From contig JBIPSI010000003.1 in NCBI GenBank assembly GCA_044070495.1, positions 1-64,000 of the forward strand: a stretch of DNA of 64,000 nt. Reading direction: 5' to 3'. The DNA comes from Spirulina sp. (GTDB taxonomy: Bacteria > Cyanobacteriota > Cyanobacteriia > Phormidesmidales > Phormidesmidaceae). Made by a program: the position numbers and the translations under genes. This document shows, one piece after another, positions 39,552 through 59,084 of this stretch; position 1 is the stretch's first letter; the number at the start of each line of letters is the position of its first letter. Under the pieces are notes generated by a model, which worked only from the letters and a program-made list of their open reading frames with translations, searched no databases and was not told where the DNA came from.

Positions 39552-39624
<73 letters not shown>

Positions 39625-42510: not shown

Positions 42511-42579
42511 GTGACCTCTCATGAACTGAACTTGAACCAGGCCAGGGACGGGAGTCGAACCCGCCCTACTCCCACTGGC
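42511..42579 (-). repeat. tRNA-like intergenic element, copy 2
   Basis: gccagtgggagtagggcgggttcgactcccgtccctggcctggttcaagttcagttcatgagaggtcac. Confidence 0.95.
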
Positions 42580-42581
42580 AA

Positions 42582-42875
42582 TTACACATCGGACTCAATA
42601 CCTAGACCTTTCAGCGCGTATTCCAGTGCGGCCTTACCTTTGATGGCTGCGCTAAGTTGAGCGCTTGCGGCATCAACTCGGTTGCCGCGATCTTGGATGA
42701 AGGCTTGGCCGCAGAAGTTGCCTTCTTGAACGGCTCGCTCAGCGTCAGCCAGAGAGGACTTTAGCCACCTGATAGCTGACTCTAGTTGGGACTGAGCTAA
42801 CTCGACTTCAGCAGTGGCTTGGAATAGCGCGACTTTCATCTGGTTCGCAACGTCTTTGGAAATTTCGCTGGTCAT
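42582..42875 (-). CDS. Hypothetical helical protein, 97 aa; first gene of operon P1
   Basis: gagg RBS downstream of the promoter repeat. Confidence 0.7.
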   Translation of the reverse strand: MTSEISKDVANQMKVALFQATAEVELAQSQLESAIRWLKSSLADAERAVQEGNFCGQAFIQDRGNRVDAASAQLSAAIKGKAALEYALKGLGIESDV

Positions 42876-43005
42876 GGCCTGAGCCTCTAGTGGTGTTTTT
42901 TAACTACATTTATATAATACATCGGAGCTATTATGGAGGGGTCAATTATTGCGAAAGATTCACGTTGAAAAGCCTGTTCTGCAAGGTTTCTGCGGATCGA
43001 GCTTT
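42876..43005 (-). promoter_or_regulatory. Repeated terminator/promoter module P1
   Basis: Core taactacatttatataatacatcggag identical to P2 and P3, plus tattgcg and ctgcaagg blocks. Confidence 0.8.
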
Positions 43006-43014
43006 GAGGCGATG

Positions 43015-43482
43015 CTAGCGGTGGTCACCACTGAGAAGTGGCGTATCGGTGGCCATAAACAGGGTGAGCTGTTGTGCTCTAGGGAAGGCTGCTCCCTTTT
43101 TGTCGAAGGTCGCCAGTGCCTTAAAAATGGCATCCACACTCAGCGTTTTTAGATTGCCATCTTTGTCAATGGGATATTCCCCCCGCCACTTCTGGCGGAG
43201 GTAATCAATATCTGCCCCGTTCAGTTCCATGCTGAATGGCACCATGGTGTTATTTTCGTTCCGCTGAACGCGATCACGCCATGCATGGGCAAACTCAAAC
43301 TTGAGTACCCAGAATAGATAGGCGGTGTCGTTCAGAATGCCGTAAGTCCATGCTTCTTTTAGATCTGATGGCGACAGCATCAAAACATCGTCCGATTCGC
43401 TACCGATGTCTGGGGCCGCACTAATGTGTGGGTGTAGATCAACAACTTTTGAATTTACTTGGGGCATGACATTTACATCCAA
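43015..43482 (-). CDS. Hypothetical phage protein
   Basis: Tightly packed in the minus-strand operon; QQLTLF near the C-terminus. Confidence 0.65.
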   Translation of the reverse strand: MDVNVMPQVNSKVVDLHPHISAAPDIGSESDDVLMLSPSDLKEAWTYGILNDTAYLFWVLKFEFAHAWRDRVQRNENNTMVPFSMELNGADIDYLRQKWRGEYPIDKDGNLKTLSVDAIFKALATFDKKGAAFPRAQQLTLFMATDTPLLSGDHR

Positions 43483-43484
43483 AA

Positions 43485-43724
43485 TTACAAAGAGTCTGGA
43501 GAACTGATCACGGTATCTGGATGACCGAAAATTGAGTCGAGATAGATTTCATGAATGACGCGATCACAACTTCCCTCCTGCATGAGAAAAAGGGCGAGGG
43601 CGGCGCTGGCTACCTGGTTGTAGTCGCGCCGGGGATGACGCCTCACATAGCCTTCGACAGCGGTTAGCAAAACTTCGGGGATCACGATTTTGCTGGTTGC
43701 CATCGCATGATGTGGGGTGGGCAT
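43485..43724 (-). CDS. DUF2811-like protein
   Basis: IPE.L...HP..D.....AALALFLMQ.G..DR...YLDSIF pattern. Confidence 0.65.
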   Translation of the reverse strand: MPTPHHAMATSKIVIPEVLLTAVEGYVRRHPRRDYNQVASAALALFLMQEGSCDRVIHEIYLDSIFGHPDTVISSPDSL

Positions 43725-43736
43725 AGCCAGATCTCC

Positions 43737-45824
43737 TTAGTCGATAGAAGACGTTTCGGCTTCGACGGTCTGCTGCCCAGCAGGCAGGTCGAAAAGCGGT
43801 GCCACCCCAGCGGGATACATCACTACCCCCAGATGGCCGACAGCCTCAGCGAAACGATCACGGTCAGGGCCGAAATAAAGAATCTCTAGGCTGAAGGTGG
43901 CCCCAGCCAGGTTGGGAGCCGTCGGGTTGCTGAAGCGGACGTACTGAGTAATCCGGCAAACCGCATCAGCATGGCGAAGATAACGCTGGTGCCAGTGGGT
44001 ACGGTTGTCGGTTTTGTTGAGAACAAAGAAGTGGGTTGGCAGTCGCCCAGCCATCTTCTCGGCCATAAACTTGAGCGAGAATGCTTCGTTGAGCGAGTAT
44101 GGGCAGTTGTCCCAGCCCAGGGTTTCGCATTCATCCTCCAGTGGTTCGACGGCCCAGGAAACCTCGTCACCCAAGGCGCTATTCTCCTTGGTGAACCGAA
44201 CACGGGCTGGTAGCTCGGTATGGTCATTACTGGAAACATCTAGGTCAAACGCATCGCGCCCCCACCGCTTTAAGATTGGCTCCCAAATCCAGGGAGGCGT
44301 ATCGTTCTCGTCATGGTCGATGATGCTGCTAGAGGTGGCCGGAGAAGCCCCCTTGGTCAATCGGCTATGCATCCTAGCCTGGGGTGTTGGCTGGGGCGGC
44401 GATTGGGGCGGCGGGGGCGAGGTCAAATCGGCAACACCGTTGCCATTTTGAGGGCGGAACAGGTCTACTGTTGGCAGCGTTTCAAGGCCTCCATTTTCCC
44501 AATGCACTGAGGCCGTTCGGCTCTCCACATCCAACGCCAAAACAACGCCTTTCCGGGTCTCTTCGCCAATTTTGACGACGTAATCGCCGACCTCTAGTCG
44601 CTGCCATGTGCCGTCTAGGACACTGCCTTCTGGTGCGTCCTGATAGCCACCTTCAACCAGACGATCATCGTCTTCCTGGGAATCAGGGGATGGTTCAGGT
44701 TGGAGCTTCAGGCGTTCGTTGGTTAGGACGTAGGACTGCCCCCGGTAGGTGACTTGCTGACCGCAGTAGGTAAAGCGGTAGTCAGGATGCTGGGCATAGC
44801 TATAGGTGGGTTTGTCACCCCACGCTGCCAGCGATACGACCCCAATTGCCTCAAGGGGATGGTTAGGCGACGACCATCCTGCTACCGTCACCCACTGGCG
44901 ATCACCCCATTCAAACAAGCCCCGGATTTGGTTTTGATTTAGCTTGTCAGCGCTGTATAACCTGTTGGCCCGTGCCAGGAGTTTAGGCGAGACTATCGCT
45001 GTGATTTCGCTATAGCGAAACTCTGGCTTGTTCTCATCCATGTCCCCAGAGGGGGCTAGAACGCCCTCATCTGAGTTGGGTATAGAATCCCCCTCAGTTG
45101 TCAGTTCAGGCAGGTTAACGGCAACTTCCGTAGGCGGAGAATCAACATCTACCAATCTGGCGGTCTCCATGAGGACACCGCCCCCGGCTTCCAGCCTGAT
45201 GTAGTTAAAGCCAACGGCCTTGACAATACCTTCAACGACATCCCCGTCTTTACCCAACCCGCGAACGTGATCACCAGGTTGAAAGCGCTTGGCCACGACG
45301 GACTTGGAGTGCTGCTCTAGAATTTTTTCGCCTTCCCGCTCCCAAAGCTGGGCCAGTGCCTCGTAGGTTTTCACGGCCTTCGGGTAGCTGAACTGGAAGC
45401 TAACCGAATCTTCGTACAGTTCTACGCAGAGTCCTCCCCGGCGCTTGACGATTCGACCGACCTGGCTCCATAGGTCGATGATCTCCTCCTTCGATAACGC
45501 CTGCTCCCTTCTCGATTCAGACAGGTAGTTAAGGGCCGACCGCAACGAAACATCAGCCCCCTGCGCCGATATCCAGCCCTCCAGTGAACTCCAGTTTGCC
45601 GCCACAGCCATGTAAGCCGAGATGGTGCGGGGGGCAATGTCCGGCAGGTTCTCGGCACACCAACGGCCCCATTGCCCATGCTTCACACGGGACTTCTGCT
45701 CAATCAGAAGCTCACCGAGGCGGCAACTCTTTTGGAGTACCGTCATTCCTGCACTCTGAACCTCCTGGTGTAGAGACAGGATTGTCGCGACCTCCATTGC
45801 TTCAGCCTGGACTAGCGCAACCAT
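43737..45824 (-). CDS. DUF3102 domain fused to a phage Dam-type N6-adenine methyltransferase
   Basis: N-terminal GELLIE.K..VKHGQW..W...RT...YM; C-terminal DTPPW..FDLD..NCPYS; start after gaggtcac. Confidence 0.75.
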   Translation of the reverse strand: MVALVQAEAMEVATILSLHQEVQSAGMTVLQKSCRLGELLIEQKSRVKHGQWGRWCAENLPDIAPRTISAYMAVAANWSSLEGWISAQGADVSLRSALNYLSESRREQALSKEEIIDLWSQVGRIVKRRGGLCVELYEDSVSFQFSYPKAVKTYEALAQLWEREGEKILEQHSKSVVAKRFQPGDHVRGLGKDGDVVEGIVKAVGFNYIRLEAGGGVLMETARLVDVDSPPTEVAVNLPELTTEGDSIPNSDEGVLAPSGDMDENKPEFRYSEITAIVSPKLLARANRLYSADKLNQNQIRGLFEWGDRQWVTVAGWSSPNHPLEAIGVVSLAAWGDKPTYSYAQHPDYRFTYCGQQVTYRGQSYVLTNERLKLQPEPSPDSQEDDDRLVEGGYQDAPEGSVLDGTWQRLEVGDYVVKIGEETRKGVVLALDVESRTASVHWENGGLETLPTVDLFRPQNGNGVADLTSPPPPQSPPQPTPQARMHSRLTKGASPATSSSIIDHDENDTPPWIWEPILKRWGRDAFDLDVSSNDHTELPARVRFTKENSALGDEVSWAVEPLEDECETLGWDNCPYSLNEAFSLKFMAEKMAGRLPTHFFVLNKTDNRTHWHQRYLRHADAVCRITQYVRFSNPTAPNLAGATFSLEILYFGPDRDRFAEAVGHLGVVMYPAGVAPLFDLPAGQQTVEAETSSID

Positions 45825-45864
45825 GGCGTGACCTCGAAATACGTTACATTTATTATATCGTAAA

Positions 45865-46185
45865 TTAACTATTCGGGATAGCAATACGACCTGAGCGAAG
45901 GAGAGCTAGGAGAGCGACTAGGGCGGATCGGCTCATGCTTTGGCGAATGGCCAGGAATGGGTTGACGCTATCGGCGGCGATCTCAGAGATGACGGCGACT
46001 TCTTGGGGGCCATCGGTGGCGGTGATGGCTTGGACGATGAGAGCATGGAGTCGAGGGCGATCCAGGATGATCCACCGTTGTCCAGCGGGCCTGCCATCAG
46101 GACGATAGGCTCGCTGACGCTTGGCCAAGCCACACAGCACGATCTCAACCTCGATTGCGGCCAATAGGGAACTCAAATCAGTCAT
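45865..46185 (-). CDS. Hypothetical phage protein
   Basis: Start overlaps the upstream stop (MTDLSS). Confidence 0.55.
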   Translation of the reverse strand: MTDLSSLLAAIEVEIVLCGLAKRQRAYRPDGRPAGQRWIILDRPRLHALIVQAITATDGPQEVAVISEIAADSVNPFLAIRQSMSRSALVALLALLRSGRIAIPNS

Positions 46186-46657
46186 CGAACCACACCTCCT
46201 CGGCCACGCTACCCAGGACAGCCTCAACCGGATTACGACCACTGGACAGGCTGGCCGTGCAGATATCTCGCCAATTGTCTGGGGTTGGTTCATGGGCAAC
46301 CTCGTCCCAAGATGGCAACGGTTGGCCCATCAGACGTGCCGCTTTCAGACGCTTTCCGTACAGGATGAACTTAGCCATCTCTGGGCAAATCTCCGGCCCC
46401 TTGTCGGCCCCTGGAGGGAGCGCTACAAACTGCTCCTGTTGCTCCCGTAGTCGCCGTGCTTTGACCTCCCGGATGATGGCATCCGGCTTTGCAAACTCCT
46501 GTTCTGCGATCGCGTTGATGACTTCGACAAAGCCCTGGTCATCAATCAGCGGGGCAATACGTCCGTAGATCAACCCGCCCAAGTTTGGCCCTGGTCGCCA
46601 CAGCTTGACCTCAGACAGGAACGAAAAGAATTCATCGAACACGGAACGGCTAAGCAT
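46178..46657 (-). CDS. Hypothetical protein downstream of the replication initiator
   Basis: ggaggg RBS; overlaps the stop of the rep gene. Confidence 0.6.
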   Translation of the reverse strand: MLSRSVFDEFFSFLSEVKLWRPGPNLGGLIYGRIAPLIDDQGFVEVINAIAEQEFAKPDAIIREVKARRLREQQEQFVALPPGADKGPEICPEMAKFILYGKRLKAARLMGQPLPSWDEVAHEPTPDNWRDICTASLSSGRNPVEAVLGSVAEEVWFDD

Positions 46658-47852
46658 GGCTCCCTCCTGCCGCCGCTCGTTTGGCCACCCACTCACGCAT
46701 CATCTTTTCGCCTAGCGACTCCGTTGCTGCTGTCCGGGCCTGGGCAATTTGTTGCTCATCTAAACCACTGGCCACCACTGCCGCTGGGTTCAGCCCAGTC
46801 GCCCTCGCCGCTTCGGCCCATGCCGCAATGTTCTGGTCGATCTTCGCTGGCCGAATAGCGGTCAAGAAGTTCCCGTTGATGCTGCGCCACCAGTCCATTT
46901 TCGGAGACACCCTCACCCACTGAAGTGCTAGGGCATGGTTCTCTAGTGCGGTGGCCTCATCACCGTCATAAAACTCGATGACCCGCTGTACGGCCCGGAT
47001 GCCCTCTGGGCTGATGGAGCGGCACCCGGCCCAGCCGTCCGGCTTGTGTTGGTTGTGGCTAGACACCCAGGCCACAACGTCTACCGGGATGGATGATTTT
47101 TTCGATCCGCGCCGCCCGCCGCCGGAACTTTTGGTCCTCGCTAGAGAACTCCTGGGTAGCGGCTGCTCCTGCTCTGACTCAACAACGGAGCGGGGAACTG
47201 GTGTGGCGGGTTCGGGTTCCGATTCCAAATTTTCTGTTTGCCCCGCCACCGTCATTTTTCCCCCTTGGGGGGTAGGGGGGTTTTTTTGAGTCTCTGAAGT
47301 AGTCTCTGTTATTGCTGGGTCGTTCCCGACTGCTCGTGGGTCGTTTTCGACCGACCATCGGACAAATTTGACCCATGGGAAGTCAAACCTGTCTTCTCCA
47401 TCGGACGAATTTGACCCATGGGCCTTTGCTTTTGCCCTCGCTGCCAGGTAAGCGATCAGGGGTTCAGGGTGGAATAGATAGTAGGTCGTTCGGTCGAATC
47501 GATAGCGAGGGTTCGGGTTCTCATGCTTTGAGACGATGCCATGCTCGACCAGCCGTGTGATCGCCTTCTTGATCGTGGTTTTACCGCCAAGTCCCATCAG
47601 TGCATCGGCGATGTCATCCAGCGTGTGGTACTGGAGCAGAGATTCGTCCTGACTAGGGTCGTCACCGTGGTTTGTAGCCACCTTATTCAGATGTCTAGAA
47701 CGCTTCTTTTCCCTAAGTCGAATACCGTGCCAATACTCGAAATAACTTAATAGTGCAGCAGCAACTTCACACCCAAAAATCTCGTACTGCCACCGCCGAT
47801 AAAAAACAACATCCTCATTCTCTGGATGAGGTAGCACCCAACAATCTTTCAT
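46650..47852 (-). CDS. Putative phage replication initiator (replisome organizer-like)
   Basis: N-terminal wHTH (AAALLSYF...TIKKAITRL...DRTTYY), internal iterons, ETTSETQKNPPTP linker. Confidence 0.7.
   Translation of the reverse strand: MKDCWVLPHPENEDVVFYRRWQYEIFGCEVAAALLSYFEYWHGIRLREKKRSRHLNKVATNHGDDPSQDESLLQYHTLDDIADALMGLGGKTTIKKAITRLVEHGIVSKHENPNPRYRFDRTTYYLFHPEPLIAYLAARAKAKAHGSNSSDGEDRFDFPWVKFVRWSVENDPRAVGNDPAITETTSETQKNPPTPQGGKMTVAGQTENLESEPEPATPVPRSVVESEQEQPLPRSSLARTKSSGGGRRGSKKSSIPVDVVAWVSSHNQHKPDGWAGCRSISPEGIRAVQRVIEFYDGDEATALENHALALQWVRVSPKMDWWRSINGNFLTAIRPAKIDQNIAAWAEAARATGLNPAAVVASGLDEQQIAQARTAATESLGEKMMREWVAKRAAAGGSHA
47318..47422. repeat. Iteron-like direct repeats inside the rep gene (putative origin)
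   Basis: ccatcggac(a/g)aatttgacccatggg at 47355 and 47398; gggtcgttYYcgac twice. Confidence 0.7.
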
Positions 47853-48207
47853 GCTAGAATAGTTCCATTACTTCACGGACTTAATTGCTCCTGACTGCTG
47901 GTAACTCTGCTTATCCAACCGCTTCGTTACCTGGCAGAATCAATCCCTGCATTGCGCCCGCCTTGCAGGGATTTTTATATGCTACATCTAAATCGTATCC
48001 CTTATACGGGATGCCATAGACGAAGTAAAGCCAAGGATAAGGGTCAAGGCCCATAGCCCTGCTGCTACGGGGAGAATACCGATATTGATGCTTCTCCCAT
48101 AGGTTCTAGCCACAATTTCATTGGTAGGAAATTTGATGGGTTTCAACATGATCACAGCTTCTTCTTCTAAGGGGCAATTCAATTTGACGAATGGGCTTTG
48201 AATTCAG

Positions 48208-49476
48208 TTAAACCACCTCAACTGTTACCGTCTTAGTCTGCATAGCCTCTGCTTGTTTCTTATTAATCAGCTTCAGGATTTCGGAGCCAGCTATCGGGGG
48301 CAGTTCTCCAGACTCGATATGATTGCCGACAGATTTAATGAAAGACTCGGCCTCTTCGAGTTGGGACTTACTCAACTCAATTACCAAATCTTTCCAAAGC
48401 GGATTGTCTCGCCACGCTGGATCAATATCAACATCGACGGTGGCTGGAGTCGGAGGCTTTGGGGCTAACCTTTCGTAAGCCCGGTCAACCAACACCGCAA
48501 TGCTGCCCCTAGCCTCTGGGGGCAGATGGCCAGAACTAACGTAGCGAAGCGCCTTGTCTCGGTAACGGGCAATGTCACGCACTTCGCTCAGGTTGGCAAA
48601 TGCCGACCTAATCTTGCCCCATAGGTCGGACTGCATGAAGTCTTCGGAGACGGGCTTGAGTTCAAGGGGCGGAGGCGGTTCAGGATCAGGCATCATCGCT
48701 GGGGGTAAGGCAACGCTGGCTCCTGCCAGTAACGGCTGCTCCGCCAGAGTCATCGCGTAGCGGTCGCCTGCGGCAATTTGTCTGGAGGCCCAGTCGGGAC
48801 TTACCTCGATTGATAACATCCACTTTTCACGACGGGCTCGACCACCGCCAGCGGTCGGTGTGCTAATCTTTTCCGGCCTGCGGGTTAGTAACAGTGGGAT
48901 ACCGTTAAGCTGCCCAAAGGTCATCTCAATCGCAGTGAGCTGCTGGGTCAGATTAACCAAGTCATTGATCGAGTGCGTCTCGACTGTCACGTAGGCGAAA
49001 CGCCCTAGCTCTGGAATGATCAGATTGAGTCGCCCTACCTCCTTACAGCCGCAGCTATTCTCCTCCTTTGCCTCATCCCGCTGGCAGGGTACTCGTCCTG
49101 GAAAGCATTTGATGAACTTGCCCTTCACCCGCACTCCCTGCATAAACTCACGATCACAGCGGACTTCAATGCCCCCGGCACCGTATCTCTCCATGGCGGT
49201 GCTCCAGTTCTCGTCGATAGTGGGATAGGGGAGTCGCACATTGATCGCCCTGGGAGTGTCCCCGTAAGCGGCCCTGAATGCCTCAGCAGCATAGGTATCA
49301 CGGCTGTCAAAGCGAAAATGGTCTAGATCATCGCCGTATCCCATCACCGGGTTACCATGCTTGTCCAATCGGGGAGAGCCATCTTTATTACGCATGGGCT
49401 TCCTAGGGCCACCCTTCCTCAACTTACCAATCCGAGGAAAGACCCCTCTCTGATCTGTCAGTCCTTTAATTGCCAT
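48208..49476 (-). CDS. Recombination directionality factor-like (Gp3-like) phage protein
   Basis: IGKLRKG, CD, C...CGC...GRLNLIIPEL, T.SIN motifs. Confidence 0.65.
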   Translation of the reverse strand: MAIKGLTDQRGVFPRIGKLRKGGPRKPMRNKDGSPRLDKHGNPVMGYGDDLDHFRFDSRDTYAAEAFRAAYGDTPRAINVRLPYPTIDENWSTAMERYGAGGIEVRCDREFMQGVRVKGKFIKCFPGRVPCQRDEAKEENSCGCKEVGRLNLIIPELGRFAYVTVETHSINDLVNLTQQLTAIEMTFGQLNGIPLLLTRRPEKISTPTAGGGRARREKWMLSIEVSPDWASRQIAAGDRYAMTLAEQPLLAGASVALPPAMMPDPEPPPPLELKPVSEDFMQSDLWGKIRSAFANLSEVRDIARYRDKALRYVSSGHLPPEARGSIAVLVDRAYERLAPKPPTPATVDVDIDPAWRDNPLWKDLVIELSKSQLEEAESFIKSVGNHIESGELPPIAGSEILKLINKKQAEAMQTKTVTVEVV

Positions 49477-49492
49477 GACCTCTTCCTCTGTG

Positions 49493-50581: not shown

Positions 50582-50836
50582 CCGAATCGTGACCTGGAGC
50601 ATCGACATCCCAGGGCAGCAATTCAGGCGCTCTTGCTGGCACAGCAGAACGGCTGCAAAATCATCGTTGGCGAACTGGATGAAGATCTCGTTGAATCGGT
50701 ATGAGACCTGTCCATACTGCTCTAGATAGTCTTGGATATCGGCAGGTTGGTGTTGAATCCATCGATGGACAACCTGTTCATTGAATTCGTTGATATTCAC
50801 GGCACTACGCAATAACACCTGAATCGGGCTTAACAT
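50504..50836 (-). CDS. Hypothetical protein
   Basis: Last ORF of the minus-strand block; overlaps the repressor 3' end. Confidence 0.45.
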   Translation of the reverse strand: MLSPIQVLLRSAVNINEFNEQVVHRWIQHQPADIQDYLEQYGQVSYRFNEIFIQFANDDFAAVLLCQQERLNCCPGMSMLQVTIRSNLGSDTQNNAPSLDRLNIQVQKAC

Positions 50837-50857
50837 CCCAGTCTAACCTGACACGCA

Positions 50858-51277
50858 TTACTTTCCTTTACTCTTTTGGGCCGTAGCCTTGATAGCGTCT
50901 TGTTGCTCTGGCTGTAGCAGACTCCAGACCTCTAGCAGGAGGGGATTTGCTTGCTCCATGGCCTCCGCAAGTTGCTGAAGCATGGACTCGCTGCTAAAGA
51001 CCAGCTTTAGCTGAGGCCGATGCACCCCTAGTACCTTGCCTAGGGCATCGCGCACCTTGCTGTAACGACGTTGGCGATCACCTCCATGGGTAGCCTCGTA
51101 GCGGTTGCGGTATTCGCGGAGGCGTTCCGTCCCGATTACCTCCGCGTTGTACTGAGTGTTGTACCCTTTGTGCAAACGATACCCTCGCTCACACATACCT
51201 TTGGCGTAATGCGGACGATTGCAGCCTTCGGGAGGACAGTAGGGGCATTCAGGCATCGTTCTGGTCAGGTTGCTCAA
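50858..51277 (-). CDS. Cys-rich putative zinc-finger protein
   Basis: C..EGC.R.HYAKGMC motif. Confidence 0.6.
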   Translation of the reverse strand: MSNLTRTMPECPYCPPEGCNRPHYAKGMCERGYRLHKGYNTQYNAEVIGTERLREYRNRYEATHGGDRQRRYSKVRDALGKVLGVHRPQLKLVFSSESMLQQLAEAMEQANPLLLEVWSLLQPEQQDAIKATAQKSKGK

Positions 51278-51674
51278 GTGCTTGGATAAGTTGTTGCCGT
51301 TCGGCTGGCAGGTGTGGCCACAGCGCCTTCTTTTGCGCCGATGTTAGGTATGGCCAGAGTTCTTCTACGCCTTCCTTGCTAGCCATTAACCTTAAAGACT
51401 CTGGATTGGTGAAGGCATCGGCAACCCGGCTACACCCAGAAAACCGCCGGATTAGGAGCCGCTTCGCTGCGGCTCGGTGCCGACGTTCGGCCCCCGCATC
51501 GGATTGTTCGTACTTGGTAATCGCCGCTTTGCGATCTCCACCAGGGCCGTAGCCTTTCGCAGCTCGCCAGTGGGTAAAGCACAGCCCCTTGGCATAGTGC
51601 TTGCGATCACAGCCCTCGACTGAGCAGCCTGGATCGGGTTCCCCTGCTTTTCGCCTACCCATTTTGCAATTCAT
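51249..51674 (-). CDS. Cys-rich putative zinc-finger protein (paralog)
   Basis: CSVEGCDRKHYAKGLCFTH motif. Confidence 0.65.
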   Translation of the reverse strand: MNCKMGRRKAGEPDPGCSVEGCDRKHYAKGLCFTHWRAAKGYGPGGDRKAAITKYEQSDAGAERRHRAAAKRLLIRRFSGCSRVADAFTNPESLRLMASKEGVEELWPYLTSAQKKALWPHLPAERQQLIQALEQPDQNDA

Positions 51675-51767
51675 CGGAGCCACTCCTGGATGCTATCATT
51701 AAGGCGAACTGAAATGGCCGACCAATGTTGCCCCTGTGACCTCGGACAACGCTTGGTCGGCTTTTTA

Positions 51768-53903
51768 TTAGAACAGCGCCAGGGTAAGCTGACCGAGCCT
51801 TGGGGAATGAGTGGGGCTGGGAACTGATTGGGCTTGAGCGGGCTTATCAACGGCAAGGAGCCAGGTTTGGGCCATGGTGCCAGAGGCTTTGAATGCGTCC
51901 GGCTCATTTTGCTCTTTCACCAGAACATTGGGTTCACTATCCAGCCACTCCCGAAAGGCTTGTGACATCCGGTCGGTTCTGAAGAAGGTAGCCGAAGATA
52001 GGATGGCCACCAGCCGCCCCCCTGGAGCCAGCAGGGAATCATAGGCATAGCGAATATGGCTGATGTCGCCTTGCCCTTCAAAGGGCGGATTCATGATGAT
52101 TCGCGTAGCGCGATCTTCGTCAGCGGGGCAATACTTCATGGAATCTGAGCCAACCACCTCGAACTCCCGAAGCTTCAAGATCTCCCGTAGGTCATAGTTG
52201 ATTTCCAGGGTTCGCAGGGTAGCCCTAGCTTGCTGCTCACGAACGGCCTGGAGAAGCGCTCCACCGCCGCCTTGGGGATCGAGCACAATATCATCGTCCC
52301 CCACATCTAGAAGGCTAGCCATCCGCTCAGCTAGGGGGGGTGGTGTCGGAAAGTAGCCCTGAATCTTACGATTCCCTACATGGGTCAGAAGGCGGTTAAG
52401 ACGCTCTTTTTCATAATCGATAACGACCCCATTCATTGTGATCGTTTTGAGCTGGCGCAGCAGGTCTGCAAGCTGATCGGCACTAAGGCTGAACCGACAC
52501 CGAAGGTCGGCATAATGATCCTGCTCCAGATTCTCCTGCGTAATGCCATAGGTGCGGATCACATGGTCGGTACCCCAGCCGTAGTCAGTCATGGCTGGAT
52601 GGTGTTGGGACTCCGCCTCAGTCATCTCGAAGTATTCGGCTAGACCAATGACCTGCTCAATGTCGGCCTTGCTGGTGATGACATCGAGACGCCCAGTCAA
52701 ACTACCCGTGTCACACTGATCCGCGATTGCTCGAAGAATGGCCTGAATGTGCTGGAGATGATAGCCACTCCGCCGCATGGCAGCGGCTTCCTCAGCCCGC
52801 TTGCGGGTATTGGTCAAACGGTCGGCCAGCTTGTGATCGATCTGGGCCTGCATCTTGTCGGCCATGGCCCGGAAGGATGTCGCTCGTTTGGTAAGACGCT
52901 CTGTCTGAGCCTTGCTGGCCTTTGGATTGGCTGGGGATGAAGCCAGGTGATGCTCCCCCTTGGCGCAATCATGGAGCAGCACTACGGCCTCAGCTACGAC
53001 CTCGGTATGGTTCCACCCTCGTCGGTTAACCCAATCGGTTACTTGGTCGTGGGCACCAGCGTACCCAGCAGATTCCACTAACCAGACTACTTGCGCTGTG
53101 GTGCGAAAGATCTGCTCAAGCACCTCTGCCCTAAGCGTCAACGGATTAGCACCAGATAGATACCAGAACGCCGCTCGACGAGCTTCCGTCAGACTTTCAA
53201 AGTAGCGATTGGGCCTACGTCCAACGTGGCGCAGCGGATTGTAACCCTTTCCGTCAATGATGAGACGATAACCGATGGTGCGATAACTGGCACTGCTGTT
53301 GACTGGCTGGACAGTGAACCAAAGGCCGTTGTACTCAAACTGTCCACCAATTAGCTTGCCGTTAGCATCCTCGGCCCGTTGAGCTTTTGGTTCCCGCGTG
53401 GCCTTGATGAAGTTTTGGAAGCTTTCCATGTCGCCTTCTAGCTGTTCTGGTGCGGGCTCTGGTTCCCGTAAATCAGTAACCGCGAGGGCCATCCTGGTGA
53501 GTTCGGACAGACGATCAAGGCCACCCCCAACCCTTTCAACGTCGTCTGTGTCGGCTAGGTAAGGCTTGCCGCAGCTCGTCGAGATTGGAGGGACATCCAC
53601 TCCCCACTTCGCGCACGTCGCTTCTAAGACTTGGCGGAATGTCGATTCGGAATAGTCGCGTTCTAGAAAGATGTAGCGGTTCCCTCCAGCCAGGATTTCA
53701 CCTGTAGCCGCATCCCGACGGATGCTTTCAAACTCCTGGGTAATGGCCTTCACGGCATCACCGCAGGGGCCATCAACCCACGCGATCCGGATGCTGGAGC
53801 CCCCGCTATAGGTCTGAGATCGAACGGAGAACTTGATGCCTGGAAACTGAGCTTTTAGCTTAGGTCGAATGTTTTGAGCAACCTCTGCTGCTGACATAGA
53901 CAT
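51768..53903 (-). CDS. LPD29-like domain fused to an amino-methyltransferase (polyvalent-type protein)
   Basis: N-terminal FPGIKFSVRS..YSGGSSI.I.W.DGP; C-terminal YFPTP, LDPQGGGG and MNPPF. Confidence 0.82.
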   Translation of the reverse strand: MSMSAAEVAQNIRPKLKAQFPGIKFSVRSQTYSGGSSIRIAWVDGPCGDAVKAITQEFESIRRDAATGEILAGGNRYIFLERDYSESTFRQVLEATCAKWGVDVPPISTSCGKPYLADTDDVERVGGGLDRLSELTRMALAVTDLREPEPAPEQLEGDMESFQNFIKATREPKAQRAEDANGKLIGGQFEYNGLWFTVQPVNSSASYRTIGYRLIIDGKGYNPLRHVGRRPNRYFESLTEARRAAFWYLSGANPLTLRAEVLEQIFRTTAQVVWLVESAGYAGAHDQVTDWVNRRGWNHTEVVAEAVVLLHDCAKGEHHLASSPANPKASKAQTERLTKRATSFRAMADKMQAQIDHKLADRLTNTRKRAEEAAAMRRSGYHLQHIQAILRAIADQCDTGSLTGRLDVITSKADIEQVIGLAEYFEMTEAESQHHPAMTDYGWGTDHVIRTYGITQENLEQDHYADLRCRFSLSADQLADLLRQLKTITMNGVVIDYEKERLNRLLTHVGNRKIQGYFPTPPPLAERMASLLDVGDDDIVLDPQGGGGALLQAVREQQARATLRTLEINYDLREILKLREFEVVGSDSMKYCPADEDRATRIIMNPPFEGQGDISHIRYAYDSLLAPGGRLVAILSSATFFRTDRMSQAFREWLDSEPNVLVKEQNEPDAFKASGTMAQTWLLAVDKPAQAQSVPSPTHSPRLGQLTLALF

Positions 53904-53906
53904 GAC

Positions 53907-53972
53907 GTGACCTCTTGCAATGAACTGAACCAGGCCAGGGGCGGGAATCGAACCCGCCCTACTCCTACTGGC
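53907..53972 (-). repeat. tRNA-like intergenic element, copy 3
   Basis: gccagtaggagtagggcgggttcgattcccgcccctggcctggttcagttcattgcaagaggtcac. Confidence 0.95.
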
Positions 53973-53974
53973 AA

Positions 53975-54133
53975 TTAACAGAAGCGCTCACACAGGTCGG
54001 CTTCCATCTCCTCGAACACGGTCTCTAGGTGTGCCCGTTCATCTCCCCAAGTCGCCTGGATTCTGTCCCACAGCGCATCGATGATGTCTTGAGCTTCTTG
54101 GCGAGTGGTGCAGTGGGAAATTCGGCTGGTCAT
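53975..54133 (-). CDS. Small acidic protein, 52 aa; first gene of operon P2
   Basis: ggagg RBS before MTSRISH. Confidence 0.65.
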   Translation of the reverse strand: MTSRISHCTTRQEAQDIIDALWDRIQATWGDERAHLETVFEEMEADLCERFC

Positions 54134-54255
54134 GGCTTGGGCCTCCGGTGATGGTTTTTTAACTACATTTATATAATACATCGGAGTCATTATAAAATGT
54201 AGTGTATTGCGAAAAGTTCATGCTGAAAAAGATTGCCCTATAAGGGTTTGAGGAT
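54134..54255 (-). promoter_or_regulatory. Repeated terminator/promoter module P2
   Basis: Identical 27-bp core at 54160-54186. Confidence 0.8.
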
Positions 54256-54275
54256 GGCCTTGTCTTGGCGCTGAG

Positions 54276-55436
54276 CTAAATTAGGGTAAGCTGAACGGTC
54301 TGTCCACTGAGTTGGCCCCAGGCCTTTTGGAAGTTTTTGGGGTGCTGGCATTTGTCCTGAGGTGCCCAGGGGCAAGCCACTAAGAATTCTTCGATGGCGG
54401 GATAGCCTGTGGCCCTGGTGTGGGTGTAGGCTCGGTACCACTCACCATCGAGGACGACTTCGGCTCCGGCATTGATGGCCATGATGTTTAGGGTCTGAAG
54501 CGCTCCCGCCTGATCCCCCGTCCAGACGGTACTCACATCACGGCGGGCATTAACCTGGGTGCGGGAGCTGGTGCCTGTGTTTGTGTAAATGCGCCGCACC
54601 CGATAGACAGCCCAGGGCGATGCCTGGAGCCAGTCCTGGTATAGGTGGATGGCATCGGTACAATGATTCGCCATGGCGGATTCCAGGGCGCTGCCCGTGC
54701 TGAGAAGATGCATTCTTGGATTGAAGGCCATCCCAAAGCCAGCAACCCACAGTGCCTCTGCCCCATAGAGCGGTTCCCGTTTCCATCGTTCGCAGGCTTC
54801 AAAGTCGGGTTGGAACGGACAGAAGTAGCAGCAACTCTTAGGCCACTTCACCCCGAAGGTTTGCTGTAGGTATTCGACGCAGCGTTCGCGGCCCCAGCCC
54901 CACTCGATCAAGGGATAGAAGTAGCTAGCGCTGCGACAGCCATAGTCATTGGATTTAGCCGCTCGCTTTAGCTCGTCGGCGTTGTAGCCGATGGCTGGAC
55001 CAATCGCCCCGGCAATGTGGTCGCCAATCCACGGATCAAGCACGTCCCCCTTCCACCGGATCGCACAAATGTGGGGTCGCCCTAGCCGAGGCACCGTACC
55101 CGCGCCCACCAAATTTTGAGAGAGTCGGTAGTCACCTTCGATATAGCAGGTTTGGGTTTCTCTGGAGTCCGACAGGACAGTGTAGCCGTCGGCCTTAGCT
55201 GGTCCGCCTTTAGCAACCTGCACAAAACGGATGCCGTGTGTTCTCAGGAGCGGTAGGACGTAGGTCTCTACCATGATCTTTGTGCTCCAGAACTCGTCGC
55301 CTGTTTGGGCAGTGAGCACGACCAGGTCATCGAGAGACTCGAAGGGACGAGTTTCCGGCTCCAGTATCCACCTTGCCAGGATGGTGGTCGAGTCTACCCC
55401 CATGCCGTAATTGAGTAGCCATGTTTTGCGTTCCAT
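54276..55436 (-). CDS. PAPS-reductase-like PP-loop protein
   Basis: NYGMGVDST PP-loop variant, IGYNADE, YPLIEWGW and KSCCYFCPF motifs. Confidence 0.75.
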   Translation of the reverse strand: MERKTWLLNYGMGVDSTTILARWILEPETRPFESLDDLVVLTAQTGDEFWSTKIMVETYVLPLLRTHGIRFVQVAKGGPAKADGYTVLSDSRETQTCYIEGDYRLSQNLVGAGTVPRLGRPHICAIRWKGDVLDPWIGDHIAGAIGPAIGYNADELKRAAKSNDYGCRSASYFYPLIEWGWGRERCVEYLQQTFGVKWPKSCCYFCPFQPDFEACERWKREPLYGAEALWVAGFGMAFNPRMHLLSTGSALESAMANHCTDAIHLYQDWLQASPWAVYRVRRIYTNTGTSSRTQVNARRDVSTVWTGDQAGALQTLNIMAINAGAEVVLDGEWYRAYTHTRATGYPAIEEFLVACPWAPQDKCQHPKNFQKAWGQLSGQTVQLTLI

Positions 55437-55454
55437 TGCCCTGAATCCTTTGGG

Positions 55455-55811
55455 TTAGCAGATCTCGATTGCGCCTTCGTATCCCTGAACGGAAACAGGG
55501 TCGAGCATGATGGTGTCCCAGATTTCGATGCGGGGTGAAGGGTCGTCCCACAAAACGGCAACGGCGTTGCCATTTTGCAAAACCTCAACGACCCCACCCT
55601 CGCCACCCCCCGGTTCGCAAAACCGCACTCGGTCGCCAAACTGGGGTCGCCACGGAATCAGCAGATATTCCTCTCGCTCCCACTCAGGGGCTACCTCGTC
55701 GTACTGCTCCTGGGTGAGGCTGGCGGAGCCGTGAAGTTCCATGCCCTCGCCATCAACCAAGATGTAGATGCGCTGTTTCTGGTGGATGCGATCAAAGGAT
55801 GCGTCCGTCAT
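55455..55811 (-). CDS. Hypothetical acidic protein, 118 aa
   Basis: gaggtcac RBS motif; SH3-like GDRV...G.V...V.WD segment. Confidence 0.65.
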   Translation of the reverse strand: MTDASFDRIHQKQRIYILVDGEGMELHGSASLTQEQYDEVAPEWEREEYLLIPWRPQFGDRVRFCEPGGGEGGVVEVLQNGNAVAVLWDDPSPRIEIWDTIMLDPVSVQGYEGAIEIC

Positions 55812-55814
55812 GGT

Positions 55815-55880
55815 GTGACCTCTTGGAATGAACTGAACCAGGCCAGGGACGGGAATCGAACCCGCCCTACTCCCACTGGC
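55815..55880 (-). repeat. tRNA-like intergenic element, copy 4
   Basis: gccagtgggagtagggcgggttcgattcccgtccctggcctggttcagttcattccaagaggtcac. Confidence 0.95.
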
Positions 55881-55938
55881 GATGACACGTTAATTGAGCG
55901 AGTGTGGAATGGCCAGGGCCGTCCCTGGCCAATGTGCT

Positions 55939-56823
55939 TTAGTGCAGGGTTTTGAGGTAAGCGATCGCCTGGTTAGCGGCGTTGAGGCTGGCCGGGTTGA
56001 GTTGTCGCTGCCAAGCGCCCTCGCTACGTGCCCAGAGAAAACCCAGAACGTGACGGAGGTGCTGCCGCACGTCTTGAGATGGCTTCTCGTCAAACACAAG
56101 CTGCACCCGATTCAGGACGTGGTTGCGAACCACGGTCAGACCCAGATCGTCATAGCGGGTTTCATGGCTCTCGCCGTCCTCCGCGATGGCATCGTGCTGC
56201 CGCCGTACCGCTTCAATGCGGGCTTTGATCCGCCGAATGTTTGCGCCGTTATTTTTTAGGGCGTAGTCGGGAAAGCCGATCCGACCACAAAAGTCAGGAG
56301 TCAGCAGTTGTGCGGCCATCTGCTCGGAGACATCCAGCGCACTGGCCAACTTCCGAACTTTTTCCTCGGTCTCTACCTGAAGCTTGGCGACTTTACGAAC
56401 CTGGGCATTTGCCCGCTTCATCTCTGCCTGCCGGATTTCCAAGGCTTCCAGCTTGACCTGAAGTTGTTCGATGGCATGCGGGTCATCGCTACTGATGGCC
56501 TGGTTCCTGAGGGCAGCGGTGTGCTTCTCGCGCAATGCCTTCGCCTGATCGGTGGCGGCACAGGCTTTGTCCATCGCTGCCCACATACGCTTCTGATCCC
56601 GGCGAGCCCGACCTTCGGAGTGGTGGCCGACCAAGATGGGCTGGCCACCTGCAAACCGCTGGCCGATTTCCTGGGCCTGCTTATGCTGAGCTGCGGCCTC
56701 GCTCTCAGCCTTTTGGATGCCGGATTCAAGGCGTTCAATCCGGTGCTCTTTGCGATCATCTGTCACCTGTCGGCGCTGTTCCAGAACGTCCTGGATGTCT
56801 TGGGAGCGGTTATCGTCTGTCAT
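55939..56823 (-). CDS. DUF3560 domain protein
   Basis: GQPILVGHHSEGRARRD, ISSDDP.AI..L and NNGANIRR motifs. Confidence 0.85.
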   Translation of the reverse strand: MTDDNRSQDIQDVLEQRRQVTDDRKEHRIERLESGIQKAESEAAAQHKQAQEIGQRFAGGQPILVGHHSEGRARRDQKRMWAAMDKACAATDQAKALREKHTAALRNQAISSDDPHAIEQLQVKLEALEIRQAEMKRANAQVRKVAKLQVETEEKVRKLASALDVSEQMAAQLLTPDFCGRIGFPDYALKNNGANIRRIKARIEAVRRQHDAIAEDGESHETRYDDLGLTVVRNHVLNRVQLVFDEKPSQDVRQHLRHVLGFLWARSEGAWQRQLNPASLNAANQAIAYLKTLH

Positions 56824-56826
56824 GAT

Positions 56827-56895
56827 GTGACCTCTTGTGAACTGAACTCGAACCAAGCCAGGGGCGGGAGTCGAACCCGCCCTACTCCCACTGGC
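56827..56895 (-). repeat. tRNA-like intergenic element, copy 5
   Basis: gccagtgggagtagggcgggttcgactcccgcccctggcttggttcgagttcagttcacaagaggtcac. Confidence 0.95.
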
Positions 56896-56897
56896 AA

Positions 56898-57629
56898 TTA
56901 CATGTCGCTGCCACTGCCAGCCCATAGATTGGTGGACTGCCGTAGGCTCCTGTAGTCGCCATTGCCGAGGATGAGGTGATCTAGGATGCTTAGGCTGAGG
57001 GTTTGACCCGCCTGAATAAACAACCGGGTTAGGCTGATGTCTTCAAGACTGGGGTCAAGACTGCCGCTGGGATGGTTGTGGGCGATGATGGCGCGGGTAG
57101 CCCCGACCCGCAGGAGCCACCCAAAAATTTCCTTAGGGTCGGCAATGCACTCCGTTTTGGTGCCCTGGGCAACGACGCTGTAACCAATCACCCGCCCCTT
57201 AATATCGAGGGCGATCACGGCAAAGCGCTCCAGAGCTTGCCACATCAAATCCGAGGCCAAGAGGGTAGCGGCGATGGCCGGATCGTCGATGATCGGCTGC
57301 TGCTTTTTAGGGGATTCTAGGTAAGTTCTTCGACCAATCTCAATGGCAGCTTGAAGCTTAATGATCTGCTTTTCGGTCAAGCCTGCCTCCTTCATCTCTA
57401 GCGGGCCTGACTGGCGTAGGCGCTGCCAGGAGGCAGACTCATCGAACAGGTTTTGCTGGAAGCAGATTTTATCGATAACTTGCTGAGCTTTGTCCTCCCC
57501 AATGCCTAGAATCGTCACCAGGAGATCAGCAACGGTAGCGCTCCTAGGGTTGTTGTAGCAGCGGGCCGCTGAGAGCGCTTCGTCTTTTACCATCCAGCAA
57601 TCTTGGTTTTCAGAAAATAGAACAGGCAT
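56898..57629 (-). CDS. radC: RadC/JAB domain protein
   Basis: AHNHPSG...PS.ED and ILDHLI motifs. Confidence 0.9.
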   Translation of the reverse strand: MPVLFSENQDCWMVKDEALSAARCYNNPRSATVADLLVTILGIGEDKAQQVIDKICFQQNLFDESASWQRLRQSGPLEMKEAGLTEKQIIKLQAAIEIGRRTYLESPKKQQPIIDDPAIAATLLASDLMWQALERFAVIALDIKGRVIGYSVVAQGTKTECIADPKEIFGWLLRVGATRAIIAHNHPSGSLDPSLEDISLTRLFIQAGQTLSLSILDHLILGNGDYRSLRQSTNLWAGSGSDM

Positions 57630-57632
57630 GAT

Positions 57633-57698
57633 GTGACCTCTGAACATGAACTGAAACAGGCCAGGGGCGGGAGTCGAACCCACCCTGCTCCAACTGGC
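57633..57698 (-). repeat. tRNA-like intergenic element, copy 6
   Basis: gccagttggagcagggtgggttcgactcccgcccctggcctgtttcagttcatgttcagaggtcac. Confidence 0.95.
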
Positions 57699-58670: not shown

Positions 58671-58673
58671 GGC

Positions 58674-59067: not shown

Positions 59068-59084
59068 AGTTGAGTGCGGGATAT

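Follow-up and report, generated by a model that had tools for sequence, protein, structure and literature searches.

A repeated minihelix in a prophage-like island

The analysis of a 64,000-nt window of Spirulina sp. DNA (positions 1 to 64,000 of contig JBIPSI010000003.1, assembly GCA_044070495.1) revealed a prophage-like island adjoining a tRNA-Arg gene. A 39-nt element is present there in six good copies and one decayed copy, all between minus-strand genes (Table 1). Read on the minus strand, which is that of the mRNA, the element consists of a 5-bp stem, an 8-nt bulge (NNGGWGYA), a 7-bp stem and a T-loop (UUCGAYU). The hairpin is closed across the bulge by the outer stem, GCCAG/CUGGC, which was absent from the initial annotation, and the two stems form a 12-bp stack like that of the acceptor and T arms of tRNA.

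Table 1. Features of the island, in order of position. R1 and R2 are the models used in the searches.
Feature	Position	Strand	Description	Neighbouring genes
tRNA-Arg (UCU)	39552..39624	+	left edge of island; no encoded CCA 3′ of the gene	
Terminator-like hairpin	41362..41391	-	12 pairs, then AUUUUUUU	3′ of the last gene of the minus-strand block
Copy 1, decayed	about 41736..41780	-	7-bp stem kept; loop inverted, AGUUGAA	5′ of 83-aa gene 41455-41706
Copy 2	42541..42579	-	3′ arm CCCGUCC (G-U); matched by R1 and R2	97-aa ORF 42582-42875 and 242-aa gene 41779-42507
Second intergenic repeat (families D3-D5), three copies	42840-43010, 54100-54270, 58900..59075	-		
Copy 3	53934..53972	-	GGGCGGG..CCCGCCC; loop UUCGAUU; bulge UAGGAGUA; R1 74.3 bits, also matched by R2	71-aa ORF 53975-54190 and 711-aa LPD29 polyvalent-protein gene 51768-53903 (both -)
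Copy 4	55842..55880	-	3′ arm CCCGUCC (G-U); loop UUCGAUU; matched by R1 and R2	5′ of 118-aa gene 55455-55811
Copy 5	56857..56895	-	perfect stem GGGCGGG..CCCGCCC; matched by R1 and R2	RadC-like gene and DUF3560 gene (55939-56823)
Copy 6	57660..57698	-	5′ arm GGGUGGG, U-G with 3′ arm CCCGCCC; bulge UUGGAGCA; matched by R1 and R2	ParB-like gene and RadC-like gene (aligned ATG 57629; RadC JAB domain) (both -)
ParB-like gene	57699-58670	-	ParB N-terminal and HTH domains	
Leader after copy 7 (example)	58671..58700	-	CUGGUUCAGUUCA..AAGAGGUCAC, then Shine-Dalgarno-like AAGAGGU and ATG	
Copy 7	58701..58739	-	GCCAG / UGGGAGUA / GGGCGGG / UUCGACU / CCCGCCC / CUGGC; R1 73.8 bits, R2 59.3 bits	80-aa ORF 58742-58984 and ParB-like gene (both -)

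The window copies share 75-94 nt including the leader on their 3′ side. This leader is common to the window copies only, and relatives found elsewhere carry other leaders. Copy 7 lies beyond the range to which the initial annotation extended (42541..57698). In copy 1 the bulge GG has become GA, the outer stem reads CUAG/UUAG and the loop inversion puts a T-loop-like reading, UUCAACU, on the plus strand; with R1 the plus-strand hairpin scores 22.9 bits and the minus strand 12.6 bits. All six pattern matches in the host genome (5.3 Mb) are located inside the island and R2 adds none outside it, which ruled out a genome-wide small repeat of the REP or MITE-like kind.

The second intergenic repeat has a GC-rich hairpin with a U run; next comes an AT-rich stretch resembling a promoter, then a Shine-Dalgarno-like site and finally an ATG. 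Because each of its three copies is followed by a small ORF and then by a minihelix, these copies are probably the starts of three transcription units; a simple sigma-70 scan did not call them as promoters. The ORF adjoining the tRNA gene gave no Pfam or PHROG match, and a protein search with the ORF at 62438-63997 found no match.

Strand preference of the fold

According to the initial annotation, substitutions among the copies indicate selection on a fold of the transcribed strand. The underlying observations were reproduced. In the minus-strand alignment, CCCGCCC is changed to CCCGTCC in copies 2 and 4 and GGGCGGG to GGGTGGG in copy 6, and the plus-strand letters confirmed that all three changes produce a G-U pair when read on the minus strand, as opposed to A-C on the plus strand. 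The sole loop change among copies 2-7 is UUCGACU (copies 2, 5, 6 and 7) versus UUCGAUU (copies 3 and 4); it affects the sixth loop base, which we take to be position 59 in tRNA numbering. The remaining changes are in unpaired positions: copies 3 and 6 differ in the 8-nt bulge, copy 5 differs in the base that follows the helix, and further changes lie in the leader. Three transitions out of three toward one strand correspond to p = 0.125, or to p = 0.25 when copies 2 and 4 are counted as a single event, so the window alone cannot carry the strand inference. Nor does single-sequence thermodynamics separate the strands, since folding-energy z-scores of copies 2-7 on the sense strand (-0.98 to +0.52) are no better than those of shuffles; the only outlier is the decayed copy 1 (-2.70 on the minus strand, -3.85 on the plus strand).

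The comparison was therefore made with a family set of 63 distinct members from phage contigs, metagenome contigs and related genomes, selected by a strand-symmetric filter that allowed at most two non-Watson-Crick pairs of any kind among the 12. Counts given below out of 64 stem from an earlier filter, which passed one false member (L331, with six non-Watson-Crick pairs). Loci L008-L125, found in genome contigs with a pattern lacking the 5′ stem, were excluded from all counts; single matches of that pattern in genome contigs were taken to be ordinary archaeal and CPR-bacterial tRNA genes.

The 756 pair cells of the 63 members comprise 721 Watson-Crick pairs, 28 G-U, 5 A-C and 2 others, and the excess of G-U over A-C shows that one strand is preferred. 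Pairing is maintained in 99.1% of cells on the sense strand as against 96.0% on the antisense strand, and it falls to 45-63% when the register is slid. Counted as distinct events, G-U outnumbers A-C by 17 to 3 (binomial p 0.0026), or by 15 to 3 without the outermost pair. Ten of the 12 pairs vary on both sides (194 cells), and the covariation score of 0.737, compared with 0.159 in shuffles, was reached in 0 of 500 shuffles. The elements are also oriented with the genes. Within 160 nt downstream of the element, 35 of 37 instances have the start of a sense ORF of 80 aa or more, compared with 7 of 37 for antisense ORFs; for 35 further instances and ORFs of at least 60 aa the figures are 30/35 and 8/35. 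On the upstream side, the end of a sense ORF lies no more than 12 nt away in 21/37 instances of the first set (antisense, 5/37) and in 12/35 of the second (antisense, 1/35). Sense-strand A-C mismatches do exist (GGCAGGG/CCCCGCC is kept across several genomes), and a coding-strand C-to-T bias could contribute to the asymmetry. Overall, covariation, the pairing bias and co-orientation with genes together uphold the claim of selection on a fold of the transcribed strand, and the expanded alignment indicates that mismatches are not equally tolerated on the two strands.

A site acting at the DNA level could also be envisaged: single-stranded or cruciform DNA used in recombination, replication or packaging, an attC-like site, a single-strand promoter or a boundary for module exchange. 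Covariation per se is compatible with either strand, the loop inversion of copy 1 is a DNA-level event, the long similarity between window copies resembles concerted evolution, and the set of genes around the copies (ParB-like, RadC, methyltransferases) is reminiscent of the leading regions of transferred elements. Against this stand the asymmetry described above, the orientation that follows the genes, and the occurrence of single members in lytic T7-like cyanophages, between scaffold and capsid genes. Integron attC sites are imperfect palindromes with R″/R′ core sites GTTRRRY that fold on the bottom strand and have an IntI integrase beside them; no core of this type was seen by eye flanking the copies, and an integron integrase was not found. 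A Frpo-type single-strand promoter was rejected. We consider a DNA-level role very improbable. Sequence alone cannot separate RNA from sense-strand single-stranded DNA as the selected molecule, but in lytic phages the elements lie in untranslated stretches before capsid and psbA genes, a setting that points more to RNA.

Comparison with known RNA families

About 12 stacked pairs and a 7-nt T-loop of the UUCRANU type, which define a tRNA-like minihelix, were found in the six good copies and in the 63 relatives. No Rfam 15 family reached its gathering score on the elements in the window, where only the tRNA-Arg was found; scans of window positions 41000-60000 (E up to 10) and of sets of 6 and 20 viral loci placed no family on the elements. 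ARAGORN detected only tRNA-Arg in the window and nothing at the elements in viral loci. Sub-threshold local matches to the T arm were given by tRNA-Sec (27 bits against a gathering score of 47, copy 4) and tmRNA (14-17 bits against a gathering score of 47, viral loci).

A tRNA gene (RF00005) was rejected, as there is neither a D arm nor an anticodon arm and the elements were called neither by ARAGORN nor in the Rfam gathering scan; tmRNA (RF00023) was rejected for its sub-threshold score and the lack of a tag reading frame. A YrlA or Y RNA was rejected because there was no Rfam match and no D stem in the 39-nt fold, the neighbours being ParB-like, RadC, DUF3560 and LPD29 genes. PhotoRC-I and PhotoRC-II, known from upstream of psbA (PMC2864571, as far as the source was available), did not match the elements in the Rfam scans. 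The Glutamine-II riboswitch occurs near the element in some cyanophage spacers, but it is a separate element. No description of the motif was found in the literature searched; the supplementary tables of PMC10690425, which in its available part lists about 10,000 candidate phage RNAs, might include it.

Distribution among phages

The minihelix family is phage-borne. In contigs of T7-like cyanophages the element is located between the scaffold and capsid genes, one per genome, and in mycobacteriophages family members are found in early operons; Conspiracy and SWU2 carry near-canonical members in the early leftward arm. The compact 39-nt plan is identical in phages of cyanobacteria and actinobacteria. 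A DNA search of cultured phages with the scaffold-capsid spacers of loci L138 and L135 gave no match. Among cultured T7-like cyanophages, matches in the same spacer were partial and confined to the T-arm level in Syn5, S-TIP28, P60 and S-CBP2, and SS120-1 and S-CBP42 gave no match. Scanning of 31 downstream ORF fragments identified eight as major head protein and four as photosystem II D1 (psbA); downstream genes are too varied for a gene-specific regulator.

Host chromosomes of 150 other genomes of the phylum contained no R2 match (0/150). This bears on the possibility that the elements are functionless, being either decaying remnants of tRNA genes or of attachment sites derived from tRNAs, or a selfish small repeat. 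Such an origin would agree with the tRNA gene adjoining the island, with the resemblance of the 3′ strand to the 3′ end of host tRNA-Phe (GGCGG..CCGCC UCCUGGC A) and with the visible decay of copy 1. We give it scarcely any credence, however, given compensatory changes that preserve both stems across 63 distinct members, a plan shared by cyanobacterial and actinobacterial phages, and a lack of copies both in the host genome outside the island and in the rest of the phylum surveyed.

The element starts a few bases after the upstream stop codon (0-12 nt in many members) and 20-140 nt before the next start codon. This position could be explained by a non-canonical terminator or attenuator, a GC-rich hairpin just after the stop codon reducing read-through to the next gene. 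The abundant non-coding Pleft RNAs of Cluster A mycobacteriophages, early leftward transcripts of temperate actinophages, provide some support. In mycobacteriophage L5 about 90% of Pleft transcripts end in the zone 51,140-51,190 without a canonical terminator, and the available part of PMC5712189 names no tRNA-like fold for these RNAs and contains the authors' proposal of termination. We found a T-arm-like hairpin inside this zone (51142-51156, 17.4 bits). In the hairpins of L5 and D29 only the T-arm part of the model is matched (17.2-19.2 bits) and the outer parts differ. On the other hand, no U run follows the helix (CCUGGUUC), and none of the seven copies is among 20 terminator-like sites, while the hairpin at 41362-41391 was found. 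Moreover, termination would not require the T-loop or the bulge to be conserved, and the element precedes the most strongly needed genes (capsid, psbA). Termination or attenuation is thus an improbable function.

Possible function

RNase P and RNase Z both accept acceptor/T-arm minihelices, and RNase Z serves tRNA genes without CCA. From the sequence features described here, we propose that the element is a tRNA-like processing signal for host RNase P and/or RNase Z on phage messages, and consider that this stands about an even chance of being correct. The element would be a cis-acting RNA, a cut-down tRNA in which the 5-bp acceptor-like stem and the 7-bp stem stack to 12 bp under the T-loop cap, the bulge being placed at the point where the D and anticodon arms would branch off. 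Host tRNA-maturation enzymes would treat it as precursor tRNA, with RNase P cleaving on the 5′ side and RNase Z after the base following the helix. These cuts would split long early prophage transcripts into separate messages with defined, helix-protected ends; in cyanophages, cleavage of this kind would detach the capsid and psbA messages from the RNA that precedes them.

Several data are consistent with processing. G is present at +1 in 51 of 64 members, and in the 63 members the helix is followed by A (42/63), then U (53/63) and U (39/63), with CCA in 3/63 only. The host tRNA genes, read by eye, have CCA after the discriminator in 0/36 cases and trailers starting with T in 33/36. Genes for RNase P RNA (253.6 bits) and for RNase Z (373.9 bits, exceeding the cut-off) are present in the host. 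In M. smegmatis the tRNA-like module of YrlA is cut by RNase P and CCA is added, according to the available part of PMC4201824. The T-arm-like hairpin of L5 inside the Pleft end zone also fits, as do the capsid and psbA genes downstream of the element and the lack of R2 matches in other host chromosomes. Against the processing model, the 5′ strand exits the helix after 5 pairs rather than the 7 of tRNA, the conserved bulge has no role under plain RNase P/Z cutting, the folding energies of copies 2-7 do not surpass those of shuffles, and at the L5 Pleft end site, where the hairpin fits only the T-arm part of the model, the authors proposed termination (PMC5712189, available part). The helix extends by a further pair in 11/63 members where about 15 are expected (a hand calculation from base counts); selection for a length of exactly 12 bp, over and above composition, is therefore not shown.

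The bulge is central to another explanation, in which the fold acts on RNA without cutting by tRNA enzymes, either as a docking site for a host tRNA-binding factor (TruB, TrmA, CCA-adding enzyme, ribosome or other), the bulge forming part of the recognition surface, or as a structure that stabilises the message or enhances its translation, placed in the 5′ untranslated region of strongly expressed genes. Bulge positions 3, 4, 6 and 8 read G, G, G and A in 64/64 members, yet the search patterns prescribed the loop and most of the bulge, so that their family-wide conservation is partly built in. Matches found by the model only, where no letter is fixed, retain the bulge GGWG (same-genus relatives; Conspiracy, AUGGUGAA; SWU2, AUGGUcGCA). 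In copy 1 the T-loop and the bulge GG have disappeared together, and the element precedes capsid and psbA genes, which also agrees with docking or stabilisation. G at +1, A followed by UU, and the absence of CCA are nevertheless marks of a precursor for trimming, which simple docking does not need, and we regard this second explanation as possible but unlikely.

A further version of cutting by RNase P and RNase Z may be imagined, in which a free mini-tRNA of about 40 nt is released, receives CCA and then acts in trans, titrating host factors or defence toxins as a decoy or sponge. Six would be released per pass through the prophage early operons, one per spacer; the targets would be factors or toxins aiming at the acceptor end or elbow of tRNA, and the GG-bearing bulge would dock on the T-loop, copying the elbow. 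The scheme might extend to the abundant, host-toxic early RNAs of Cluster A mycobacteriophages. This version is highly doubtful.

If cutting of the messages does occur as proposed, phages of at least two bacterial phyla punctuate their messages with a compact tRNA mimic, borrowing host tRNA-trimming enzymes much as in mitochondria. This would add a widespread RNA motif missing from Rfam 15, explain the release and stability of cyanophage capsid and psbA messages, and give the so far unexplained RNA end in early transcripts of well-studied mycobacteriophages a cause that can be tested. It would also provide a small portable processing signal for operon engineering in cyanobacteria and actinobacteria.

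Relation to known systems

By analogy, the closest known parallels are plant mitochondrial t-elements, together with the tRNA punctuation seen in mitochondrial transcripts. In both, tRNA-like folds that do not decode lie between protein genes or next to them on the coding strand and are taken as RNase P and RNase Z cut sites that set message ends. The likeness consists in being tRNA-like, on the coding strand and between genes; t-elements are organellar, unrelated in sequence and usually fuller, cloverleaf-like structures, whereas the phage element has just two stems in 39 nt, keeps a conserved bulge and occurs in up to six copies per operon block.

YrlA is also a non-tRNA with a tRNA-mimicking T-arm. 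As described in the available part of PMC4201824, it exists as a free RNA of some 100-150 nt, contains D, T, acceptor-like and variable arms as well as a stem that binds Ro60, and has its gene beside rsr; some YrlA-type RNAs are encoded by mycobacteriophages. The phage element, in contrast, has no D stem and is found inside messages. Its likeness to tRNA and tmRNA lies in the T-arm sequence and the acceptor-like closing stem.

Model minihelix substrates of bacterial RNase P and RNase Z are laboratory-made continuous hairpins, usually with CCA; one study (PMC4919913) reportedly concerns RNase P as a ruler on the acceptor/T stack. The phage element shares with these substrates the 12-bp stack, the 7-nt T-loop, a predominance of G at +1 and a base left unpaired 3′ of the helix. 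It differs from them in being natural, in having an 8-nt bulge after pair 5 and in carrying a UU(G) trailer instead of CCA.

Copies of the element in the window and their surroundings

Repeat finding and alignment of the window identified seven intergenic copies of the 39-nt minihelix, all in the minus strand. Read 5′ to 3′ on that strand, a copy runs GCCAG, UGGGAGUA, GGGCGGG, UUCGACU, CCCGCCC, CUGGC and has an outer stem of 5 bp, an 8-nt bulge confined to the 5′ side, an inner stem of 7 bp and a 7-nt loop. The window copies start 0-9 nt past the preceding gene's stop codon and share a leader of about 30 nt on the 3′ side of the element, with AAGAGGU and the next gene's ATG at its end. In the decayed copy 1 the stem is unchanged and the bulge GG has become GA. 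Its hairpin loop is the exact inverse of the loop in the other copies, a type of flip that hairpins undergo as DNA. Pattern and model searches of the host's own 5.3-Mb genome found no further copies. Some 30 nt upstream of copy 4 there is a perfect 9-bp hairpin of the UGGCCAGGG..CCCUGGCCA type. In it the sequence of the element's 3′ strand (CCGUCCCUGGCC) recurs, and it resembles a partially duplicated minihelix.

Coordinates of features in the window
Feature	Position	Strand	Method
Minihelix, well-kept copies 2-7	42541-42579, 53934-53972, 55842-55880, 56857-56895, 57660-57698, 58701-58739	minus	alignment
Minihelix, decayed copy 1	~41736-41780	minus	alignment
Second intergenic repeat, three copies	42840-43010, 54100-54270, 58900-59075	minus	repeat alignment
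9-bp hairpin near copy 4	55910-55931		
Strong terminator-like site, block end	41362-41391		
374-aa ORF	39754-40878	plus	
tRNA-Arg	39552-39624		

The island holding these copies is prophage-like and begins at a tRNA-Arg gene. Its minus-strand genes encode ParB-like and RadC-like proteins, DUF3560, an LPD29 polyvalent protein, a Gp3-like factor and a Dam-like methyltransferase; its plus-strand genes, from 59945 onwards, include one for a phage DAM-like/GNAT protein. Terminase matches were obtained for the small subunit and, weakly, for the large subunit. The place expected for an integrase, directly after tRNA-Arg, is occupied by a 374-aa ORF for which Pfam and PHROG gave no match. In a same-genus genome (locus L162) the element is followed, after about 1.1 kb, by a relative of this ORF (30% identity). 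The host genome carries photosystem reaction-centre genes and the host is therefore a cyanobacterium.

In a second intergenic repeat, a GC-rich hairpin carrying a U run is followed by a conserved AT-rich stretch (..CUCCGAUGUAUUAUAUAAAUGUAGUUAAAAAAC..), and this in turn by a Shine-Dalgarno-like site and an ATG. Downstream of each of its copies there is a small ORF (97, 71 and 80 aa), followed by a minihelix. This repeat looks like a terminator-plus-promoter cassette opening three transcription units. Its AT-rich, promoter-like stretch was not called in a sigma-70 scan. A strong terminator-like site is present at the end of the block.

Relatives of the element

Relatives were gathered by pattern scans of viral and metagenome contigs and by a model search of 150 other related genomes. 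The latter detected one or two copies in seven genomes, all belonging to the 52 of the same genus. Comparison of same-genus loci placed the element among homologues of the window island's genes in three of the eight (L156, L157 and L164). A search of 150 other genomes across the phylum with the broader model (R2) gave no matches at E values up to 1e-4 under strict filters.

A scan of viral contigs in which the outer stem was freed yielded at least 118 loci. Among the matches listed, the sequence of this stem varies widely while pairing is kept (GACUG/CAGUC, GUCUG/CAGAC, AGCAG/CUGCU and CCCCU/AGGGG, for example), and 23 of 116 pattern instances fell within ARAGORN-called tRNA genes and were left out. 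When all loci were pooled, at least 222 instances outside tRNA genes were obtained; a strand-symmetric filter allowing up to two non-Watson-Crick pairs of 12 reduced the matches listed to 63 distinct cores. Other phage contigs carry one to three copies, and the window's array is the largest observed. Small arrays exist outside the window too, as demonstrated by close same-strand pairs on two viral contigs: 41218-41256 and 41403-41441, 185 nt apart, on G295, and 9343-9381 and 9761-9799, 418 nt apart, on G297.

Conservation of the fold and its strand

Analysis of the 63 cores revealed both-sided changes in 10 of the 12 pairs (194 cells). The covariation score was 0.737, which none of 500 shuffles reached (their mean was 0.159), and pairing fell to 45-63% when the register was slid. 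The initial annotation had proposed that selection acts on a fold of the transcribed strand and not on a double-stranded palindrome. The details it gave for the window copies (substitutions, loop, linker and tail changes) were all correct on repeat finding and alignment; the three window substitutions by themselves are insufficient to carry the strand argument.

In the larger sample stem mismatches are not equally frequent on the two strands: 99.1% of cells are paired in the sense orientation versus 96.0% when the same alignment is read as the opposite strand. There are 721 Watson-Crick, 28 G-U, 5 A-C and 2 other cells. Counted as distinct events, 17 G-U stand against 3 A-C changes (two-sided binomial p 0.0026), or 15 against 3 (p about 0.0075, calculated by hand) once the outermost pair, at which a G was fixed by two of the patterns, is removed. 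Counter-cases do occur: an A-C at the first inner pair in L126, a C-A in L156 and L157, and a conserved A-C in GGCAGGG/CCCCGCC common to L159, L160, L161, L162, L223 and L246. A C-to-T bias on the coding strand could also inflate the G-U count. The sense strand is also favoured by a test of orientation in which the two strands are handled in the same way. The proposal of a transcribed-strand fold therefore holds on this larger sample.

Similarity to a tRNA precursor and possible function

The 3′ strand of the element is continuous for 12 nt, like that of the T stem stacked on the acceptor stem in a tRNA. The one clear difference is that the 5′ strand of the element exits the helix after pair 5, whereas that of tRNA exits after pair 7. 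G occupies position +1 in 51 of 64 members. The helix is followed by A (42/63), U (53/63), U (39/63) and G (44/63), and by CCA in only 3 of 63. The host's 36 ARAGORN-called tRNA genes look similar: read by eye, none has CCA after the discriminator, and 33 have trailers beginning with T. An automated CCA flag on eight of these genes reflects acceptor ends that happen to read ..CCCA.

The bulge has the consensus GG, then W, G, Y and A. Its three G positions and its A were set by the search patterns; GGWG persists in matches from models alone, which fix no letter. In tRNA, G18 and G19 contact the T-loop, and by analogy the bulge G residues possibly contact the T-loop of the element. The 3′ part of a host tRNA-Phe gene (host genome contig C15, 12770-12842) reads GGCGG UUCAAGC CCGCC UCCUGGC A and resembles the inner stem and 3′ strand of the window element. 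The resemblance may be due to chance or may point to where the element came from.

The most likely function, and the simplest reading to take in every feature, would be that of a processing signal for host tRNA-maturation enzymes. The features concerned are the helix end and its trailer, the stack of 12 bp, the T-loop, a location just behind a stop codon and before a start, carriage by phages and the lack of CCA in the hosts' tRNA genes. Both RNase P RNA and RNase Z are encoded by the host. RNase P could cut at +1, RNase Z could cut after the trailing base, or both could act. The helix might then protect the downstream message at its 5′ end or the upstream message at its 3′ end.

As a kind, tRNA-like processing marks are known from plant mitochondria and model substrates. 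No Rfam 15 family reached threshold on any member tested, and our literature search found no description of the minihelix motif. The novelty lies in the compact form, which has two stems and a conserved bulge, in its spread across both cyanobacterial and actinobacterial phages, and in its use as a spacer that is repeated within one operon block.

Position of the element in phage genomes

T7-like cyanophage contigs carry the element in the spacer that separates the scaffold gene from the major capsid gene. A Glutamine-II riboswitch, together with its gene for a small peptide, precedes it in some of them; the riboswitch matches (33.9-56.3 bits) are about 120-300 nt upstream of the minihelix (L135, 5194-5402; L275, L322, L348). 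At locus L135 a 36-aa ORF is found 3′ of the riboswitch, and the capsid protein shares 73-76% identity with those of Syn5, SS120-1, S-CBP42 and S-TIP28. Among the matches listed from the freed-stem scan, downstream ORF fragments corresponded to major head protein in 8 of 31 cases and to photosystem II D1 in 4 of 31. Matches at the level of the T-arm are present in the scaffold-capsid spacer of the cultured phages Syn5, S-TIP28, P60 and S-CBP2. The Syn5 variant, read by eye, differs in its outer stem (GGUAG/CUACC) and has a bulge of 12 nt with GGUG.

The leftward early arm of cultured mycobacteriophages contains near-canonical members in Conspiracy (35.5 bits, directly after gp87) and SWU2 (34.8 bits). 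Papyrus has T-arm-like hairpins in two consecutive spacers. The T-arm of a 51-nt query matched in 58 phage records, and Mycobacterium phages account for 50 of these.

According to Dedrick and colleagues (PMC5712189), about 90% of Pleft transcripts of L5 end at 51,140-51,190, where they remark on the absence of a canonical terminator. A T-arm-like hairpin is located within this zone, at 51,142-51,156, and a second one between genes 89 and 88. The position of the first is a suggestive link to experiment; since the L5 hairpins match the model only in part, we regard them as a lead and not as evidence for the family. In the L5 record (L397, 50,400-51,170) and in D29 (L398), CUUGACAGCCACC-type sites, which we take to be stoperator sites bound by repressor, directly follow the T-arm-like hairpins on the 3′ side. 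If so, the order in these early spacers would be hairpin, stoperator, ribosome site and start codon.
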